Shown: positions 51-58,007 of the stretch, one piece after another
Layout: each line of letters opens with the position of its first letter
How positions within the stretch are numbered: position 1 is the first letter of the stretch
Assembly: GCA_902826095.1 (NCBI GenBank)
Contig: CADEDN010000004.1
Coordinates: forward strand, 1-64,000
From: an uncultured Alphaproteobacteria bacterium
Lineage (GTDB): Bacteria > Pseudomonadota > Alphaproteobacteria > Caulobacterales > Parvularculaceae
Direction of reading: 5' to 3'
Length of the DNA: 64,000 nt
Made by a program: the position numbers and the translations under genes
The notes under the pieces: generated by a model
What the model saw: the letters and a program-made list of their open reading frames with translations, nothing else
The model's database searches: none
What the model was told of the DNA's origin: nothing

Positions 51-476
51 CTAGTGCTTGCCGACGTCAGTGACCGCGAGGTCGCGTCGCGCGGTGACCG
101 TCGTCACGACGAGCCCGGCCATCGGGTCGAGGAAGGTCATCGTCAGGAAGATGAAATAAGTCGAATTGCCGAAGCCCGGCGCGAGGATGAAAAGGAGGAG
201 CGCCACGACGAAAAGCAGAAACGACAACAGGTGGTTGGTGATCGACGCGGTGCCGGCCTTGGTCGCGCGAACGAGTTCGACGAAGAGGAGGCCCATGCTG
301 CCGAGCAGAAACAGCGTTCCCCACGACACCCGCCAGACATCGCCGGAATACATCGGCAGATTGAGAACGACGAGGTCGTGCCAGGCGGCGCCGGCGCCGC
401 CGCCCATGCCGGTGACCGTCAGCACCGTATAAATGATGAGACTGATCGTCAGCAGCGGAAAAACCTGGAGAACCAT
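51..476 (-). CDS. small integral membrane protein (4 predicted TM helices), downstream of GT2 gene; GtrA/DUF2304-like candidate
   Basis: 141-aa ORF rich in hydrophobic segments, co-oriented with and immediately downstream of the GT2 gene at 518-1339. Confidence 0.45.
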   Translation of the reverse strand: MVLQVFPLLTISLIIYTVLTVTGMGGGAGAAWHDLVVLNLPMYSGDVWRVSWGTLFLLGSMGLLFVELVRATKAGTASITNHLLSFLLFVVALLLFILAPGFGNSTYFIFLTMTFLDPMAGLVVTTVTARRDLAVTDVGKH

Positions 477-50945: not shown

Positions 50946-51073
50946 CCCCCCTCTCCCGCTTGCGGGAGAGGGGTCGGGGGTGAGGGGGCGTCAACGCAGA
51001 GGTCCGCCCATGTCTCACCTCCCCTCACCCTGCCGTCGGACGCATGGTCCGACCCCGCAAGCGGGAGAGGGTT
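50946..51073. repeat. REP family B copy
   Basis: CCCCTCTCCCGCTTGCGGGAGAGGGGTCGGGGGTGAGGGGGCGTCAACG...GTCGGACGCATGGTCCGAC...CGCAAGCGGGAGAGGG. Confidence 0.75.
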
Positions 51074-51102: not shown

Positions 51103-51492
51103 TCAGGCCTCGCCCGGCTTTTTCATCGCGGCGGCGAGGCAGGAGCAGCCGCCGAGGGAGAGGACGCCTCTTGCGTCGAGATATTCCTCGATCGCTTCGG
51201 CGATGAGATCGTCGGCGCTCATGTCGGCTTCGGCGGCGCCGAGCGCGAGGCGCATGAATTCGCGCGCCGACAAATGCACGGTGACGCCGGCCTTGACCTC
51301 TTTTGTCTGCGGCGCCGGCGCGGGCGCGGCGACCGGCGGCGCCGGCGCGGCGTCCCTCACCCGCCGCGCGATCGCACCAGAGACAGCGCACGACGCCCGA
51401 AAGCGACGCGCGCGGAGGACGAATGGAATCACAACTCGGCCGTGACATCTTAGGAAAATACTGCGGGAACGCAAATCATGGAACAATTTCAA
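51103..51492 (-). pseudogene. chimeric ORF: insertion-derived N-terminus fused to orphan duplicate of RHH C-terminal domain
   Basis: C-terminal 77 aa identical to the end of 53969-54883 protein; N-terminal 50 aa encoded by low-GC inserted DNA. Confidence 0.4.
51106..51357. repeat. ~250-bp direct repeat (copy L) duplicating the 3' end of the RHH/ParG-like gene; left boundary of 2.6-kb low-GC insertion
   Basis: near-identical (1-2 mismatches) to 53964-54215. Confidence 0.85.
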
Positions 51493-51610
51493 TGCTTCGC
51501 CCCATCAGGATCCGCGGAGGCCATTGCGAAGGGCGTCGACACTGAAATTAACCGCAATCAATCATAAGCTGGTCCGAGCGTTTAACGGCTCAAGGAATTG
51601 AGGTACTGCA

Positions 51611-53794
51611 CTATTCTTCGGCAAGCTGCACTCGATCAAACTCAGCGACCCTGACTATGTCCTGAAGTTTCCGTTTCATTTCGTCCGTCAATAGGCGGGC
51701 AGCACCACAAGAGTTCTCACCCAGCATCCTGCGTGCAAATTCTTCGCGTGCGATAAATGGCGATGGCTGATCTGGATGACCTTCATCATCCATCATCGGC
51801 GTAAGCGCCTCTAATAAGATCTTCTCAACGATATCGGAATCGGACTCCATGCAGGCAGAGCGCGCGACGACCGTCAATCGCTGAGGCAGGATGCCGCCCG
51901 CAACATCCTCAAATTCAATTGCAGGAGACCACTCTGCCGTGTATCCCAAGTCAAAATCTTCATTACTCAGGCAACCTTCGAGCGATTTTGGATCGGTCGC
52001 GGCTCTTAACCGAGCGCCCCGCTCAGTTGAGATGAAACCATCTTTGACTACTTGTGCGAATTTGCCCAATGTGTTTTCGATTTCCGACACTTCGAGTGGT
52101 GCGCAGCCGAATTTTGCGCGGAAAAGCATTGCGGAATCTGTGGTCTTTGGGTGTCCCTCTGCCCGTCGAAGATCCACTCCATTGAGATCCGCCGCGGCCA
52201 GATCAGCATCCAATAGACTGACTCCGATTAGACTTGCATTGGCCAACTTTGTTCCTTGGAGAATGGCGTCCTTTAGATCGGCGCCAACCAACACAGTGTT
52301 GGTGAGCGACGCCCAGCTCAGGTCTGTGCCGTGAAGATTTGCCCCCAGCATGCTCGCGCCGTCCAACAAGGCGTGCTTCAACTTTGCGCGGGTCAGTTCT
52401 GCGCCCGACAAATCGGCACGACTGAGGATGCTCATTTGCACCTCGGCATCCATCAAGCTCGCTGACCTCAATTCGGCATCTACGAGAATTGCGCCATGGA
52501 GGTCTGCCCGATCGAGTATGGCTTTATTCAATATTGCGCCTTTCATGTCAGCTTGTTGAAGTCTTGCCGATGTCAAGTTGGCAGCGCTGAGAGATACGCT
52601 CTCCATTAATGCACCCTCCAAATCAGCACCAATCAAGTCTGCTCCTTGAAGAAATGCGCCGGTCAAGTCAATTCCACGAAGAGATGCGTTCCGAAGAAAC
52701 GCACCTTCCAGGCGGCGCTTGCGCAACGATAATCTTGATAGTTTCGGAGCACCATCGCCCTGCGCCGCATGCTCGGCAAAATCATAATAGGGCAACATTA
52801 TTGAGTCACTGAACGGGCTTGCAGGCCGCCGCGAGATGTCATCGAAAGATTGATCGAATAATTTCTCTCGCACTCGAGCAACAAATGGCAGTTCGCGAAC
52901 GCGCGCAAAAATAGTTTCCTCGTCAAAGGCGACCAAGATCCATGACGTTGCGAGCAGGAGCGCGCTAAGCAACGCAATCAAGATGTACTTTGTGATAGAT
53001 TTCAGTGTACGTCGGGCGGGAGCCATAATTGAGCGGCGCTCCGGTCTTACCCAAATTATAGAGAGAAGAAGCACGTCGAATGCGATGAGGGCGCGAATCC
53101 ACCAGAGAGTTGCCTCCCCGTGATAAGGAAGGAATTGCACTTGCGTCAGCAGCAATCCGAACATGGGTAAGATCGCCAATGTCACGAATCCTATCAGTCG
53201 GAGCACGTAGGCGAAAAACCCCGTCCGATTCCAAGTCGGTCCTGCGAGCATTTGCGCAAATACAAAGTTTGAAATTTGGAGACGCGTCTCGTTTTGACGA
53301 TCAACCGAAATCTCGTGATCCGCCAAGAAGCGATTCAGCTGGGCCGCATTGTCAGCCAGCAACCAGATGTGCAGCAGGGAGTAGCTATGCAGCAAAAACA
53401 GGAGCAGTGGCGCAACCCAGAAATAGGGCACCAGCGGCAATTCGGCGTCAATAATCGGCAATCTGAATGGTGTTTCGAGTAGCAGTTGTGTGTGCGTCAC
53501 TGTCCCCATTGAGATTAGATAGTAAGTCGCAAATGAAATGAACGACAACCAAATGCCCTGTGTCTTTGCTGCCGCATCATTCAGTGCTGCCATTGCGTCT
53601 TGCAGGCGCCTAGTTTGCGTCCCAGTTAGATTGGGACCAAACACTAAACTGGCTGCGGTGCCTCCAGAGTCAGCGCCACCATGATTTTGCTCTACAGAGG
53701 GAGCCGTGACGCTCGGCCCGCCAGAGGCGCTTTTTGCCGCGCATTGAAGCGCATTTCGTCGAAGCGCCATTGCGATATCGAACTGAGTGACCAC
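51611..53794 (-). CDS. membrane-anchored pentapeptide-repeat protein (N-terminal ~300-aa polytopic domain, ~230-aa pentapeptide-repeat solenoid, ~180-aa C-terminal domain)
   Basis: tandem A(D/N)LxxAxL pentapeptides (LRGIDLTGAFLQGADLIGADLEGALMESVSLSAANLTSARLQQADMKGAIL...); ~50% GC versus ~67% flanks. Confidence 0.75.
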   Translation of the reverse strand: MVTQFDIAMALRRNALQCAAKSASGGPSVTAPSVEQNHGGADSGGTAASLVFGPNLTGTQTRRLQDAMAALNDAAAKTQGIWLSFISFATYYLISMGTVTHTQLLLETPFRLPIIDAELPLVPYFWVAPLLLFLLHSYSLLHIWLLADNAAQLNRFLADHEISVDRQNETRLQISNFVFAQMLAGPTWNRTGFFAYVLRLIGFVTLAILPMFGLLLTQVQFLPYHGEATLWWIRALIAFDVLLLSIIWVRPERRSIMAPARRTLKSITKYILIALLSALLLATSWILVAFDEETIFARVRELPFVARVREKLFDQSFDDISRRPASPFSDSIMLPYYDFAEHAAQGDGAPKLSRLSLRKRRLEGAFLRNASLRGIDLTGAFLQGADLIGADLEGALMESVSLSAANLTSARLQQADMKGAILNKAILDRADLHGAILVDAELRSASLMDAEVQMSILSRADLSGAELTRAKLKHALLDGASMLGANLHGTDLSWASLTNTVLVGADLKDAILQGTKLANASLIGVSLLDADLAAADLNGVDLRRAEGHPKTTDSAMLFRAKFGCAPLEVSEIENTLGKFAQVVKDGFISTERGARLRAATDPKSLEGCLSNEDFDLGYTAEWSPAIEFEDVAGGILPQRLTVVARSACMESDSDIVEKILLEALTPMMDDEGHPDQPSPFIAREEFARRMLGENSCGAARLLTDEMKRKLQDIVRVAEFDRVQLAEE

Positions 53795-53963
53795 TCAGAC
53801 ATTACCGCACAGACCGCATTTACATGCAATTTAGCGCAGTCAGATTTTCCGGTACCAGATTCGAAGGAAGCCACACGTCATTGGCGAATAATCGCCTTAC
53901 CCTTCGGCAGGTTGCTGCGTAAGTGCTTTGGAGCTCGGCTTTCGCCAGGGTGCGCTGCGGGAT

Positions 53964-54215
53964 GAAAACTACGCCTCGCCCGGCTTTTTCGTCGCGGCGG
54001 CGAGGCAGGAGCAGCCGCCGAGGGAGAGGACGCCTCTTGCGTCGAGATATTCCTCGATCGCTTCGGCGATGAGATCGTCGGCGCTCATGTCGGCTTCGGC
54101 GGCGCCGAGCGCGAGGCGCATGAATTCGCGCGCCGACAAATGCACGGTGACGCCGGCCTTGACCTCTTTTGTCTGCGGCGCCGGCGCGGGCGCGGCCGCC
54201 GGCGGCGCCGGCGCG
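53964..54215. repeat. ~250-bp direct repeat (copy R), within 3' end of intact RHH/ParG-like gene
   Basis: matches 51106-51357. Confidence 0.85.
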
Positions 54216-54883
54216 TCGTCATCAAGCGCGTCCGGCGGATCGTCATCATCCTCTAAACTGTCGAGAACGTCGTCCTCTTCCCGCCGGTCGCCGTAGAAGG
54301 CGCTTTTTTCCTGCGCGATCGTCTCGGTGTCGCCGAATTTCTCGAAATAGGAGAGAACTTCGTCGGCTTCGGCTTCGAGCGCGGCGATTTCCTCCGGCGA
54401 CGGATTATCGGGATAGCCGGCGTCGAGGCTGCGCTCGTTGATGACGGTCATCGGCCGCGGCGGCGCCGTAGCGGCGGCGGGGGCGGCTTTCGCCGCGGGC
54501 GCGGGCGCGGCTTTGGCCGCCGGCTGCGCCTTGACGTCGGGAACGCTCGGCGATTTCGAGGCGGCGGGCGCGCTGGCGGGCGGAACAGCAGGCGCCGGCG
54601 CCTTCGCTTTTGGATCGCGCGCCGGCTCTTTCGCGGACTCTTTCGCCGGCTCCTTCGCCGGGGGCCTCGCCGCGGTTTTCAGATCGAGCGGCGGCGCTTT
54701 TGATTTGGGCTTGCCTTTGGGCTCAAGATTGAAGGCGTCGGTCTCTTCGGCCGGATCGACGATCGGCGCGTTCGACGGCGCGGCCTGTCCCTTGCGGGCG
54801 AGCAGGCCCGATGTCAGGGCGGCGAAGCGGGCTTCAAGCTTCCCCTCGCCTTCGCGCGCGCCGTTCTTTTTCATGCCGAGCAT
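53969..54883 (-). CDS. ribbon-helix-helix (ParG/CopG-like) DNA-binding protein with long Pro/Ala/Lys-rich N-terminal region; partner of ParA-like ATPase
   Basis: C-terminal VTVHLSAREFMRLALGAAEADMSADDLIAEAIEEYL RHH motif; immediately downstream of parA-like gene. Confidence 0.55.
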   Translation of the reverse strand: MLGMKKNGAREGEGKLEARFAALTSGLLARKGQAAPSNAPIVDPAEETDAFNLEPKGKPKSKAPPLDLKTAARPPAKEPAKESAKEPARDPKAKAPAPAVPPASAPAASKSPSVPDVKAQPAAKAAPAPAAKAAPAAATAPPRPMTVINERSLDAGYPDNPSPEEIAALEAEADEVLSYFEKFGDTETIAQEKSAFYGDRREEDDVLDSLEDDDDPPDALDDDAPAPPAAAPAPAPQTKEVKAGVTVHLSAREFMRLALGAAEADMSADDLIAEAIEEYLDARGVLSLGGCSCLAAATKKPGEA

Positions 54884-56253: not shown

Positions 56254-56898
56254 CTATGCGGCGTACTGCTTTTGGTAGACCTTATTCTCGAGCAGCGATC
56301 GAAAGTGCTGCATCAGCCCAAGGATTTCGGCGATTAAATCGTCTACGCCCGTTTCTTGGATGAATTCGTTCTGGCCGTGCGCAATGGCATTCCTACGCTT
56401 AAGAATGAATTGGTCGAGGAACACGCGCTTGGTTTCAAAATGCAAAGAATCGACTGAGCAGATAAGGCAGATTTCCCTGATGATGTCCGTATTGAGGTTA
56501 GACTTTGTGTCGATCAGTGATGGGTTTACGTATTTGAACGTGCCGGTCATTCCATCGAGAATGTCGTTGACTAGTTTGCATCGCGCTTCCAGGTTCGCAC
56601 GACTCTGATGTAGCGCATCGATCCTGGCGAGGAACGTGTTCACGTAAATTTGCCGCTCAAGGTTCGCGTAGGTTCGGCGCCGGATTGTGAGGTATTCGAA
56701 ATATCGGTTCGCGCAGTTGCGAACATAGCCCTCCCAATGCGCATAGCTCATCGTCACTATGGCGCGGAGCAAAACAGGCTTCGCAGCGGCGTCTGCCGCC
56801 TTCACCGCGGCCTTCAAATCGGAAAGCTCTTTGCGGCGCCAGATAAGGTCCTGGTCAAAAAGGTCCGAGAGGTCTTGGTCTGTATAGGGTTTGCTCAC
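56254..56898 (-). CDS. HEPN-like predicted nuclease (MAE_28990/MAE_18760-type), downstream partner of DUF262 gene
   Basis: all-helical 214-aa protein with C-terminal RRNAIAHG (Rx4H HEPN motif); 4-bp overlap with upstream gene; low-GC islet. Confidence 0.65.
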   Translation of the reverse strand: MSKPYTDQDLSDLFDQDLIWRRKELSDLKAAVKAADAAAKPVLLRAIVTMSYAHWEGYVRNCANRYFEYLTIRRRTYANLERQIYVNTFLARIDALHQSRANLEARCKLVNDILDGMTGTFKYVNPSLIDTKSNLNTDIIREICLICSVDSLHFETKRVFLDQFILKRRNAIAHGQNEFIQETGVDDLIAEILGLMQHFRSLLENKVYQKQYAA

Positions 56899-58007
56899 TG
56901 CGCGAACCAGTTAGTGCCGAACGGAATCGTCCGTTGGATGCGGACGGTCCCACGAAGACCGGCTACAAAGAAGGTATCGATATCGGGCGACTGCCAGAAC
57001 TGGGCGATGCGGTGTTGGACGTATTGCGTCGGATCGGGCTTGGCCTGGATGGCAGGAAGATTCCGCGCGATGCCGATCGCGATGCATTCATAGGCCGCGA
57101 GGAGCACACGTCCAGTTGGCTGCCCATTGTTGAAGCGACGAAGCGCGTTTTCGCCGTACGCCGCGTGGAGGAGGTCAAAAGTGCCGTTAAAAGTCTCGGC
57201 GACCTGCTGAGTCACACCAGCCGATGCTAGCTCGACGATACTCTTGTCGATGAACTCCTCTACGTCCAGCTTGTTGTCGTAATCTATGTATTTGTGGACG
57301 AGGTAACGCGACACGTATTCCATGTCGCGCTGCTTTTCGAGCTGGTCCTCGCTCGCCGAAAGAACGAAACGGTAGGATTGCCTCTGCGAGAGCACGCGCA
57401 TCATCTGGTGGTACGCGGGGTTCACCATGATAACGATGACATTTCGAAGCTCTTGTGCGTTGGCCAAAGTACCGCCTGCATTTAGGCGCTGGAACAAGTC
57501 GTACTTGGTTTCATTTGAACTTGGCCGCTTCAGAATTTCGACGCTTATCCTGCTCCGCCGGATGGCGAGCTGAAATGGTCCTGTGAACGGCTGTTGTTCA
57601 TCCAATGGGACACCCGGAATATCGTTCGATGCCTCCCATACCGCCTTGTCTAGTGACGGCAGATACTTAGTGGCAACGAGCGCGGTCGGCGGCTCGAGCT
57701 GGTTGGATTCCGAATTACGCAAGACACCAACGAATTCGAGGAGAGTTGAGACACGCTGAAGCCCGTCTATGAGCTCCCATCTCGAGTTCTCCTTCTCGAA
57801 AACGAAGATGGGCGGAACCGGAATACCCAGAAGGATGGATTCAATGAGCTTCGACTTCTGCCCAATCTCCCAGCGGAAGAGCCGCTGGAAATCAGGATTG
57901 ATGATGAGTTCGTTATCCTTGTACATGTTGATCAGCTCACCGACGGACATCTGATATGCGTCGGTCTTCACAAGCCGCGTGGCGATCTCAATCTCATTCT
58001 CCAGCAT
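56895..58007 (-). CDS. DUF262 domain protein (ParB/sulfiredoxin-fold, GmrS-like N-terminal NTPase/nuclease domain)
   Basis: INPDFQRLFRWE and ELIDGLQRVSTL (DGQQR-type) signature motifs; 370 aa; ~50% GC. Confidence 0.8.
   Translation of the reverse strand: MLENEIEIATRLVKTDAYQMSVGELINMYKDNELIINPDFQRLFRWEIGQKSKLIESILLGIPVPPIFVFEKENSRWELIDGLQRVSTLLEFVGVLRNSESNQLEPPTALVATKYLPSLDKAVWEASNDIPGVPLDEQQPFTGPFQLAIRRSRISVEILKRPSSNETKYDLFQRLNAGGTLANAQELRNVIVIMVNPAYHQMMRVLSQRQSYRFVLSASEDQLEKQRDMEYVSRYLVHKYIDYDNKLDVEEFIDKSIVELASAGVTQQVAETFNGTFDLLHAAYGENALRRFNNGQPTGRVLLAAYECIAIGIARNLPAIQAKPDPTQYVQHRIAQFWQSPDIDTFFVAGLRGTVRIQRTIPFGTNWFAQ

Follow-up and report, generated by a model that had tools for sequence, protein, structure and literature searches.

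A candidate divergent member of a large family of inner-membrane pentapeptide-repeat proteins, encoded in a low-GC insert

Introduction

A gene in a 64,000-nucleotide stretch of DNA from an uncultured alphaproteobacterium of the Parvularculaceae (contig CADEDN010000004.1; hereafter the window) encodes a protein of three parts: a membrane domain, a pentapeptide-repeat β-helix, and a helical C-terminal domain. That the gene belongs to a large protein family and is of foreign origin is close to certain. With about even confidence we hold the fuller reading, in which the product of this horizontally acquired gene belongs, as a divergent member, to an uncharacterized family of inner-membrane proteins and has a periplasmic rod and head that serve as an envelope spacer or scaffold. 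The family numbers considerably more than a thousand sequence clusters. Its members have a repeat rod joined to a five-helix domain that is conserved but uncatalogued, and two independent sequence signals predict that this rod faces the periplasm.

The function of most pentapeptide-repeat proteins is, to our knowledge, not known, and those that are best understood are cytoplasmic DNA mimics. The family described here suggests a testable alternative role for the pentapeptide fold, as a rigid spacer or scaffold in the cell envelope. It also contributes two newly identified protein domains that neither Pfam nor NCBIfam lists and that lack a solved structure. For annotation it means that a distinct family, not to be taken as Qnr-like, is concealed under the label 'pentapeptide repeat-containing protein'.

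Gene and overall architecture

A sequence-only reading of this DNA had proposed a 727-residue open reading frame with a membrane domain, a repeat solenoid, and a distinct acidic C-terminal domain. The reading frame is present and complete on the minus strand from a GTG codon (Table 1), the three-domain architecture is real, and the C-terminal domain is indeed acidic, with 18 K/R against 33 D/E residues and a pI of 4.5. The public gene call, an exact match to public protein P0001, takes the ATG at 53770 as its start instead, for a length of 719 residues. No recognizable Shine-Dalgarno sequence precedes either candidate start, promoter and terminator scans performed no better than on shuffled sequence, and the upstream region holds no promoter-like site. 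The small inverted repeat that had been pointed out in the leader exists, but it is statistically unremarkable because shuffling the 200-nt region upstream produces a comparable repeat 6.5% of the time.

Table 1 Features of the gene, its product, and the surrounding insert in the window.
Feature	Coordinates	Strand	Remarks
Complete ORF, 5TM-pentapeptide-repeat-Cys-domain protein	51611..53794	-	727 aa from GTG at 53794; stop codon 51611-51613
N-terminal tail, aa 1-79	53558..53794	-	Predicted cytoplasmic; AF2 and hydropathy
Five-helix membrane domain, aa 80-288	52931..53557	-	Hydropathy, AF2 helices, family conservation, family hydropathy and charge statistics
Juxtamembrane segment, aa 289-349	52748..52930	-	Caps start of repeat rod; holds conserved E293
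Pentapeptide-repeat β-helix, aa 350-565	52100..52747	-	About 43 repeats, about 10.7 coils
Acidic helical C-terminal domain, aa 566-727	51614..52099	-	Family-conserved W622, C648, C696, L710
Inverted repeat CTGAGTG-AC-CACTCAG, 7-nt arms	53783..53798	.	Overlaps GTG start
Low-GC inserted segment, 2,618 bp	51355..53972	.	GC 0.53; only this gene; absent from this locus in relatives L088, L090, L091
Left 248-nt direct repeat	51107..51354	.	Duplicates 3' end of 304-aa gene
Right 248-nt direct repeat	53973..54220	.	3' end of intact 304-aa gene
Chimeric ORF, 129 aa	51103..51492	-	C-terminal ~80 aa of 304-aa protein, duplicated, fused to insert-derived sequence
Resident 304-aa gene, downstream of ParA	53969..54883	-	3' end is presumed recombination target

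The AF2 model of the full-length protein has a pLDDT of 88 and a pTM of 0.83, and the N-terminal domain modeled on its own reaches a pLDDT of 88.9. The N-terminal tail is the exception, with pLDDT values of 46 to 67 over residues 1 to 50 and poor modeling up to residue ~55, after which an amphipathic helix (residues 58 to 79) leads into TM1. Hydropathy reveals no signal peptide-like segment in this tail, and the tails of other family members, which are 50 to 80 residues long, likewise lack a signal peptide. Where about six hydrophobic helices had been counted earlier, hydropathy, the AF2 model, and family statistics agree on five, at roughly residues 80-98, 121-146, 193-217, 229-249, and 268-288. 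Residues of the membrane domain conserved in the family are W82, Y91, H101, L112-P113, P129, H136, R171, Q181, G185, R190, P210, F221-L-P-Y-H225, R234, and D240. The window protein keeps W82, H101, LP112-113, P129, H136, Q181/G185, P210, FLPYH221-225, R234, and D240 of the family N-domain set, together with E293. In the juxtamembrane segment the family motif TFPGE reads AFDEE, with the near-invariant P291 and G292 replaced by D and E. As the protein lacks these two residues and its closest relative is at most 38% identical, its activity could differ from that of the family or be lost.

For the membrane domain and the C-terminal domain alike, there is no match among Pfam families, NCBIfam families, or the sequences of solved structures. 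Pfam scans of 33 N-terminal and 21 C-terminal domains, like profile searches against the PDB, yielded no consistent match, and fold searches with the membrane-domain model found no solved relative. One weak C-terminal-domain hit, to ALR sulfhydryl oxidase (E ~0.1), was dismissed as noise.

The only Pfam match in the protein is to the pentapeptide repeats of PF00805 (2e-41, residues ~352-545), with a score of 139.5 bits against a cut-off of 20.2. The run of repeats noticed earlier is genuine, and its register extends from residue ~350 to ~565. Compared with the eight or more contiguous A(D/N)LXX-type repeats that define the superfamily, about 43 are in register here, and they adopt the right-handed quadrilateral β-helix fold. 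This domain is charge-neutral, with 24 K/R and 25 D/E residues and a pI of 6.5. In solved pentapeptide-repeat structures each coil rises by ~4.8 Å, which for about 10.7 coils indicates a rod about 5 nm long.

A large and mostly alphaproteobacterial family

The three-part layout had been described as unusual, and proteins of this type as uncommon. Both descriptions proved wrong: the layout is the norm of a large family, and the membrane domain alone retrieves 1,671 cluster representatives (50% identity) at E<=1e-10, and 2,749 at E<=1e-3. These relatives are nearly all 600 to 800 residues long and share the layout, and about 100 proteins of 650 to 800 residues match the window protein across its membrane and repeat regions at 30-38% identity. 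With an HMM used to detect the C-terminal domain, the N- and C-terminal domains were both found in 195 of 252 sampled members, separated by a spacer of 178 to 341 residues (5th to 95th percentile). The family layout is fixed as a conserved five-helix domain, a β-helix of variable length, and a helical C-terminal domain with two near-invariant cysteines. The window protein has W622, C648, C696, and L710, the residues characteristic of the family C-terminal domain.

Most members come from Alphaproteobacteria. A genome scan, run with an alignment of a 7-sequence subset, showed the family to be patchy in distribution, with genes that are usually solitary amid housekeeping genes, often present in several copies per genome, and commonly accompanied by truncated copies in other genomes. 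The GC content of family genes lies below that of their flanks by a median of 3 points. Clustering of the neighborhoods of 80 genome loci identified no conserved partner gene. The largest real neighbor cluster, an EttA-like ABC-F gene at 7 loci, was set aside as synteny among related genomes.

Topology and cysteine pairing

Topology was assessed with statistics from 209 full-length family members, in which all five hydrophobic segments are conserved. The mean number of K and R residues is 2.2 in the N-terminal flank, 7.2 in loop 2, and 3.4 in loop 4, compared with 1.8 in loop 1 and 0.4 in loop 3. This distribution indicates that the N terminus is cytoplasmic. The repeat rod and C-terminal head are probably periplasmic, a prediction from sequence that draws on the positive-inside charge bias and on the parity of cysteines. 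Several K and R residues directly after TM5 in the window protein count against this placement.

Toward its C terminus the window protein has four cysteines, at positions 564, 608, 648, and 696, and C648 and C696 are conserved in 98-99% of the family. The number of cysteines within the last 190 residues is even in 186 of the 209 full-length members. Among the 161 members that have cysteines in the repeat segment, 118 have an even number in that segment. The tail and membrane domain served as an internal control and have an even count in only 44 of 119 members, so that the bias toward even numbers is found only downstream of the membrane domain. These counts make it probable that the C-terminal domain is disulfide-bonded.

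Foreign origin and insertion

Horizontal acquisition of the gene had been proposed from the sequence, and composition and comparison with relatives both bear this out. The insert has a GC content of 0.53 against 0.66 in the host, and the GC3 of the gene is 0.54 against 0.78-0.86 in neighboring genes. In relatives the locus runs from DUF2336 through ParA, a gene for 283 or 297 residues, and a variable stretch to MnhEFG, and the pentapeptide-repeat gene is missing. The insert contains no other non-overlapping ORF, leaving this gene as its sole cargo, as had also been proposed.

Two 248-nt direct repeats flank the insert, an observation that had escaped the earlier reading. The copies are 98% identical, differing at 4 positions, and comparison with orthologues did not tell the native copy from the duplicated one. 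The 129-residue chimeric ORF at the left junction arose as a side effect of the insertion. Positions 51301-54021 of the window, which take in both junctions, are reproduced exactly by an independent Logan contig. Rfam and tRNA scans around the insert gave nothing, and no recombinase or circular intermediate was seen. Judged by repeat geometry alone, the gene would have arrived as a 2.6-kb single-gene segment, likely through one homologous crossover between the chromosome and a circular intermediate bearing some 248 nt from the 3' end of the neighboring gene, which would leave direct repeats on both flanks. Clean and limited to one gene, the insertion between the 248-nt repeats neatly illustrates how a gene can be gained with no recombinase.

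Possible roles of the protein

We tentatively propose an envelope role for the protein: it would serve as a rigid spacer or scaffold whose rod keeps the C-terminal head at a fixed height over the inner membrane. An analogue for the spacer role is DotG, which is also anchored in the inner membrane and has long repeats that cross the periplasm and a C-terminal domain. The DotG repeats follow a 10-residue motif and do not form a classic pentapeptide-repeat β-helix (bioRxiv 10.1101/2023.03.22.533729). DotG also has a single anchor helix and is part of a multi-gene machine, whereas the genes of the present family are solitary.

The conserved polar residues H101, Y224, H225, R234, and E293 cluster at the periplasmic face of the membrane domain, with H136 and D240 inside the membrane, and may bind a ligand, an ion, or a lipid-linked molecule. 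A bolder and unlikely extension of the scaffold proposal would make the five-helix domain a catalytic or transport module of a new, membrane-embedded kind. Its His/Asp/Glu/Arg/Tyr cluster would work at the outer leaflet of the inner membrane, on either an ion or a lipid-linked precursor of the envelope. The variable rod would then be a molecular ruler that sets the height of the disulfide-bonded head, for example at the peptidoglycan layer. If true, the family, possibly with the cyanobacterial protein HglK as a distant relative, would represent an unrecognized class of periplasm-spanning envelope organizers, and this would be the first role assigned to pentapeptide repeats in proteobacterial envelopes.

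The genomic setting raises the question of whether the gene is instead a single-gene anti-phage or exclusion determinant in a defense hotspot, its periplasmic rod blocking DNA entry or triggering abortive infection. Its foreign composition and single-gene insert would fit such a role, as would a second inserted island 2.5 kb away that carries a pair consisting of GmrSD_N/DUF262 and RiboL-PSP-HEPN. The patchy distribution, multiple and truncated copies, and low GC content of the family point the same way, and plasmid copies adjoin nucleases and a PLD-like/peptidase pair. However, a defense role seems improbable: PADLOC-DB v2 gave no defense-model match at E<=0.01, housekeeping enzymes are the nearest neighbors at the 80 genome loci, where defense genes are not enriched, and there is no conserved partner gene. 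In addition, the family was not found in 50,697 phage records or in IMG/VR contigs, and only 3 of 72,556 plasmid records have it.

It is rather less to be expected that the gene is decaying or non-functional foreign DNA with no present role in its host. Recent acquisition with an unadapted codon composition, the lack of Shine-Dalgarno and promoter-like sites, the substitution of two near-invariant residues, and the common truncation of copies elsewhere are all consistent with decay. Against it, the 2.2-kb ORF is intact, the remaining conserved residues of all three domains are kept, and the AF2 model is confident beyond the N-terminal tail.

HglK (All0813) of Nostoc/Anabaena sp. PCC 7120 is an integral protein of the cytoplasmic membrane with 727 residues, N-terminal membrane helices, and a long pentapeptide-repeat run, and is required for localization of the heterocyst glycolipid layer and normal septal architecture (PMC8145042). 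Its description gives four membrane segments and, from residue 501 onward, 36 repeats (PMC8145042). The shared design of a membrane anchor followed by a long A(D/N)LXX run could suggest that the window protein is a proteobacterial orthologue with the same role in depositing or organizing an envelope layer. We consider this very unlikely, as the likeness is one of layout only: the window protein has five helices, repeats at residues 350-565, and an extra cysteine-bearing C-terminal domain of ~160 residues, and its family is mainly alphaproteobacterial whereas HglK is cyanobacterial. The common length of 727 residues is a numerical coincidence.

The sequence-only reading had offered two functions for the repeats, a protein-interaction scaffold, which is still viable, and a DNA-mimicking β-helix, which is now disfavored. 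Qnr, MfpA, McbG, and AlbG are stand-alone, cytoplasmic, strongly anionic DNA mimics of ~180-220 residues. The window protein is instead a polytopic protein of 727 residues with neutral repeats and a predicted periplasmic rod, and has none of the small, stand-alone, cytoplasmic, or anionic-surface character of these mimics. Its NCBIfam scores are also far below the curated cut-offs, at 46.7 against 240 for Qnr, at most 41.5 against at least 425 for all Qnr subfamilies, 68.9 against 360 for MfpA, 147 against 354 for PipB2, 68.9 against 274 for PipB, and 110.7 against 260 for HetL, in keeping with the earlier view that no well-annotated family fits. The periplasmic location predicted by charge bias and cysteine parity, together with the neutral charge of the rod, suggests that the protein does not mimic DNA in the cytoplasm as Qnr and MfpA do, and a membrane-tethered version in which the β-helix guards or regulates a topoisomerase or other DNA-binding enzyme is highly unlikely, its similarity in fold being common to all pentapeptide-repeat proteins, lumenal ones included.

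Pentapeptide-repeat domains outside the cytoplasm occur in Rfr32 and TL15 of the thylakoid lumen, in the luminal domain of SV2A/B/C, and in the PilQ-associated NIES39_A07680. These are small soluble proteins or, in one case, an internal loop of a 12-helix transporter, and the five-helix anchor and C-terminal domain described here set the present family apart from all of them.

A divergent member of a large unnamed family

The gene was acquired horizontally and belongs, as a divergent member, to a large, uncharacterised and still unnamed family of bacterial proteins, in which a membrane N-domain is followed by pentapeptide repeats and a C-domain with two near-invariant cysteines. Most of what was observed from the sequence alone holds, and its interpretation holds in part. 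The open reading frame (ORF) is present as described. The public gene call P0001 starts the identical protein at an ATG at 53770, giving 719 residues, and no obvious Shine-Dalgarno sequence precedes either that ATG or the GTG start. A Pfam scan detects only pentapeptide repeats (PF00805, E=2e-41, residues ~352 to 545). The register in fives runs from residue ~350 to 565, with ~43 repeats, so that the long repeat run claimed by the sequence-only reading stands but ends short of the ~580 given there. Hydropathy identifies five hydrophobic segments, and an AlphaFold2 model (104 homologues; mean pLDDT 88, pTM 0.83) likewise contains five helices rather than the roughly six first counted. The model supplies the structure prediction called for to confirm the beta-helix, with one continuous solenoid spanning the repeats. 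The C-terminal 162 residues are acidic, as had been proposed (18 K/R vs 33 D/E, pI 4.5), and are modelled as a distinct helical domain.

Features of the insert, of the window protein and of the corresponding locus in relatives
Feature	Position	Strand	Size	Description
Low-GC insert	51355-53972		2,618 bp	Bracketed by 248-nt direct repeats
Left repeat copy	51107-51354		248 nt	Duplicate of 304-aa gene 3' end, fused to insert sequence
Right repeat copy	53973-54220		248 nt	3' end of intact 304-aa gene, which follows ParA gene
Chimeric ORF	51103-51492	-	129 aa	Left repeat copy plus insert sequence, product of insertion
Window-protein ORF	51611..53794	-	727 aa	Counted from GTG
Five long helices	aa 58-97, 121-159, 193-224, 227-253, 261-287			AlphaFold2 model
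Short beta-hairpin	aa 110-119			AlphaFold2 model
Continuous beta-solenoid	aa 350-565			AlphaFold2 model
Helical domain	aa 569-726			AlphaFold2 model
Variable spot in relatives	L088 8063-10192; L090 7910-9204; L091 2800-4094			Contigs of relatives without the window-protein gene

Searching 5.8 billion proteins brought up ~100 of 650-800 residues that are 30-38% identical to the window protein over the membrane and repeat regions and that are labelled, if at all, 'pentapeptide repeat-containing protein' or 'YjbI'. With the membrane region alone (residues 60-345) as query, a HMMER scan of 1.84 billion cluster representatives matched 2,749 at E<=1e-3, 1,671 at E<=1e-10 and 239 at E<=1e-30. Proteins of 500-800 residues make up most of the 150 top matches, and the matching region is N-terminal in nearly all of them. 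The architecture, taken for unusual and uncommon on first reading, is therefore the norm of a family with 1,671 representatives at E<=1e-10. The nearest membrane-region relative is just 38% identical, making the window protein an outlier within the family. The C-domain is also present in 195 of 252 sampled members that have the N-domain, and the segment between the two domains spans 178-341 residues (5th-95th percentile; n=252), so the number of repeats varies widely. Searches of Pfam, NCBIfam and solved-structure sequences gave no relative for either domain, and NCBIfam scores far under threshold uphold the view that the protein lies outside well-annotated families.

Near-invariant residues stand out in the alignments, both in the membrane domain (W82, Y91, H101, L112-P113, P129, H136, R171, Q181, G185, R190, P210, F221-L-P-Y-H225, R234, D240 and the motif T-F-P-G-E(293)) and in the C-domain (W622, C648, C696 and L710), which is otherwise weakly conserved (~16% identity). 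The window protein retains all of these save P291 and G292, replaced by D and E. Just past the fifth helix (residues 289-293, nt ~52916-52930), the family motif reads A-F-D-E-E, in which the glutamate (E293) alone is preserved. The analysis adds a definition of the family with two domains absent from the catalogues, evidence that the rod is periplasmic, and a single-gene insertion flanked by repeats; the biology is testable.

A single-gene insertion between direct repeats

GC content drops from ~0.65-0.70 to 0.50-0.55 across ~51400 to 53950. The window-protein gene has a GC of 0.53 and a GC3 of 0.54, against a GC3 of 0.78-0.86 in neighbouring genes, and it is missing at the same locus in three related contigs, which bears out the horizontal acquisition first proposed from sequence. 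The direct repeats that flank the insert were missed in that reading; their two copies have four mismatched positions. Homologues of the 304-aa protein, whose resident gene is the presumed recombination target, come from Parvularculaceae-like Alphaproteobacteria. In an independent Logan assembly of run ERR3089230, a 2,721-nt contig matches window positions 51301-54021 exactly and spans both insert-repeat junctions, and therefore the structure is not an assembly artefact. Scans within and around the insert detected no tRNA, no Rfam element and no further non-overlapping ORF, so that the gene is its sole cargo, as claimed. We infer that the insert arrived on a circular molecule, which included ~248 nt from the 3' end of the target gene and joined the chromosome by a single homologous crossover; such an event would leave the observed repeat geometry. 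Neither a recombinase nor a circular form was seen for the insert. The inverted repeat noted earlier in the leader exists (CTGAGTG-AC-CACTCAG, 53783-53798, overlapping the GTG start) but carries no weight, because shuffling the 200 nt upstream yields a similar one in 6.5% of cases.

In the three related contigs, the gene order is DUF2336, ParA, a 283/297-aa counterpart of the 304-aa gene, a variable stretch and MnhE-F-G. The variable stretch is either empty or occupied by an AraC + DUF6265 pair or by a haemolysin-type calcium-binding protein of 709 aa. The spot just 3' of the 283/297-aa gene, occupied by the 709-aa HemolysinCabind protein in one relative and by AraC + DUF6265 in three, looks like a recurrent insertion spot. 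The putative chimeric ORF joins the conserved C-terminal ~80 residues of the 304-aa protein (…VTVHLSAREFMRLALGAAE…GGCSCL…) to a new N-terminus. The GC-rich spacer from mnhE to the left repeat copy holds a perfect 18-nt inverted repeat of REP-like appearance (50949-50966 / 51054-51071; CCCTCTCCCGCTTGCGGG / CCCGCAAGCGGGAGAGGG; 87 nt between arms).

A second low-GC island (56254-58007, minus strand) encodes a GmrSD_N/DUF262 protein (370 aa, Pfam 6.5e-24) and a RiboL-PSP-HEPN protein (214 aa, Pfam 5.6e-34) with overlapping stop and start, a predicted nuclease/RNase defence pair. Comparison with L088 and L090 puts its insertion point between DUF2336 and the ParA promoter region; direct repeats do not flank it, and PADLOC gives the HEPN protein no match.

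Distribution and genomic context

Scanning 185,579 species-representative genomes with patterns drawn from alphaproteobacterial members gave 81 confirmed loci, and 80 entered the analysis. A few are from Acidobacteriota and nearly all others from Alphaproteobacteria, towards which the patterns are biased. The alphaproteobacterial loci occur in Methylocella, Methylocapsa, Methylocystis, Bradyrhizobium, Rhodopseudomonas, Roseiarcus and Acetobacteraceae. Several genomes hold two or three copies, as tandem paralogues in Methylocapsa aurea KYG (L022, 5557-7938 and 8052-9986) and on separate contigs in several metagenome-assembled genomes (e.g. CAVWVF, CAWHTC, Methylocystis sp. H62). About a dozen loci carry split or truncated ORFs of ~160-430 residues (L012, L029, L032, L035, L048, L053, L054, L062, L080, L083, L085, L086), which may be pseudogenes or frameshift errors of long-read assemblies. 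Family genes tend to have lower GC than their flanks (median -3 points, 51 loci), which fits frequent turnover.

For the co-occurrence analysis suggested earlier, the ORFs surrounding the 80 loci were clustered all against all, and no neighbour gene proved to be conserved. The largest real cluster, an EttA-like gene at 7 of 80 loci, reflects synteny among related genomes. On individual contigs the family gene stands alone, for instance between plsY and dprA, beside thrS, or flanked by bolA and a racemase gene. None of 50,697 phage genomes and no IMG/VR contig carries a family member, and only 3 of 72,556 plasmid records do, with accessory genes as neighbours. Around the members on Bradyrhizobium barranii pBb323S2c (L092) and Mesorhizobium onobrychidis pOM4 (L093), the accessory genes encode, among others, a split S1/P1 nuclease, a group II intron reverse transcriptase and a metallophosphoesterase, as well as a very large PLD-like protein with a trypsin-like peptidase after it.

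A role in defence or exclusion could be read from the foreign origin of the gene, the patchy multi-copy distribution of the family and the inserted DUF262 + RiboL-PSP-HEPN pair nearby. It is nevertheless improbable, given that no PADLOC model matches the window protein, that there is no phage link, and that the 148 nearest neighbours, scanned with Pfam and PADLOC, include aminotransferases, CoA-transferases, dehydrogenases and similar enzymes, among which defence, transposase and integrase families are not enriched. A decaying gene is also improbable: the composition has not adapted to the host, scans gave no expression signals and two conserved positions have changed, but the ORF is intact and the AlphaFold2 model well formed.

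Predicted membrane topology and disulfide bonds

Among 209 full-length members, mean K+R counts are 2.2 in the N-flank, 7.2 in loop 2 and 3.4 in loop 4, and 1.8 in loop 1 and 0.4 in loop 3. By the positive-inside rule, this pattern indicates an N-in, C-out protein with five crossings; the N-terminal tail of 50-80 residues carries no signal peptide, which likewise fits N-in. The last 190 residues contain an even number of cysteines in 186 of the 209 members (2 in 74, 4 in 104, 6 in 8), as does the repeat segment in 118 of the 161 with any cysteine there, against just 44 of 119 for the N-terminal tail and membrane domain of the same proteins. C648 and C696 are conserved in 98-99% of members. Cysteines gained and lost in pairs are the hallmark of disulfide bonding, which points to an oxidising compartment. 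Together, these two independent signals, charge bias and cysteine parity, place the repeat rod and C-terminal head in the periplasm with fair confidence for a sequence-based prediction. On the predicted topology, H101, Y224, H225, R234 and E293 would group at the periplasmic face, H136 and D240 inside the membrane, and the QxLAGP motif in a cytoplasmic loop. The protein is thus unlikely to be a cytoplasmic DNA mimic of the Qnr/MfpA type, an option raised on first reading: its repeat domain is neutral (24 K/R vs 25 D/E, pI 6.5), its NCBIfam scores are far under threshold, the topology signals put the repeats outside the cytoplasm, and the fold similarity is common to every pentapeptide-repeat protein.

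A possible envelope scaffold

Solved pentapeptide-repeat structures rise ~4.8 Å per coil, so that 43 repeats (~10.7 coils) would form a rod ~5 nm long, and the high pTM suggests that this rod may be held rigidly on the membrane domain. Our best reading, a working hypothesis, places the protein in the envelope, where the rod would serve as a spacer or scaffold and hold a putative disulfide-bonded head at a fixed distance from the inner membrane. The conserved polar cluster of the membrane domain would bind a ligand. Pentapeptide repeats are found outside the cytoplasm in lumenal Rfr32 and TL15 and in the luminal domain of SV2. A further non-cytoplasmic precedent is a repeat protein obtained together with the cyanobacterial secretin PilQ on purification (PMC12475490). 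Judged by layout and description alone, the closest characterised protein is HglK of Nostoc, a cytoplasmic-membrane pentapeptide-repeat protein required for glycolipid-layer deposition and septal architecture (PMC8145042). HglK is described as having four membrane segments and repeats from residue 501 (PMC8145042), whereas the window protein has five helices and repeats at residues 350-565; their equal length of 727 residues is a coincidence.
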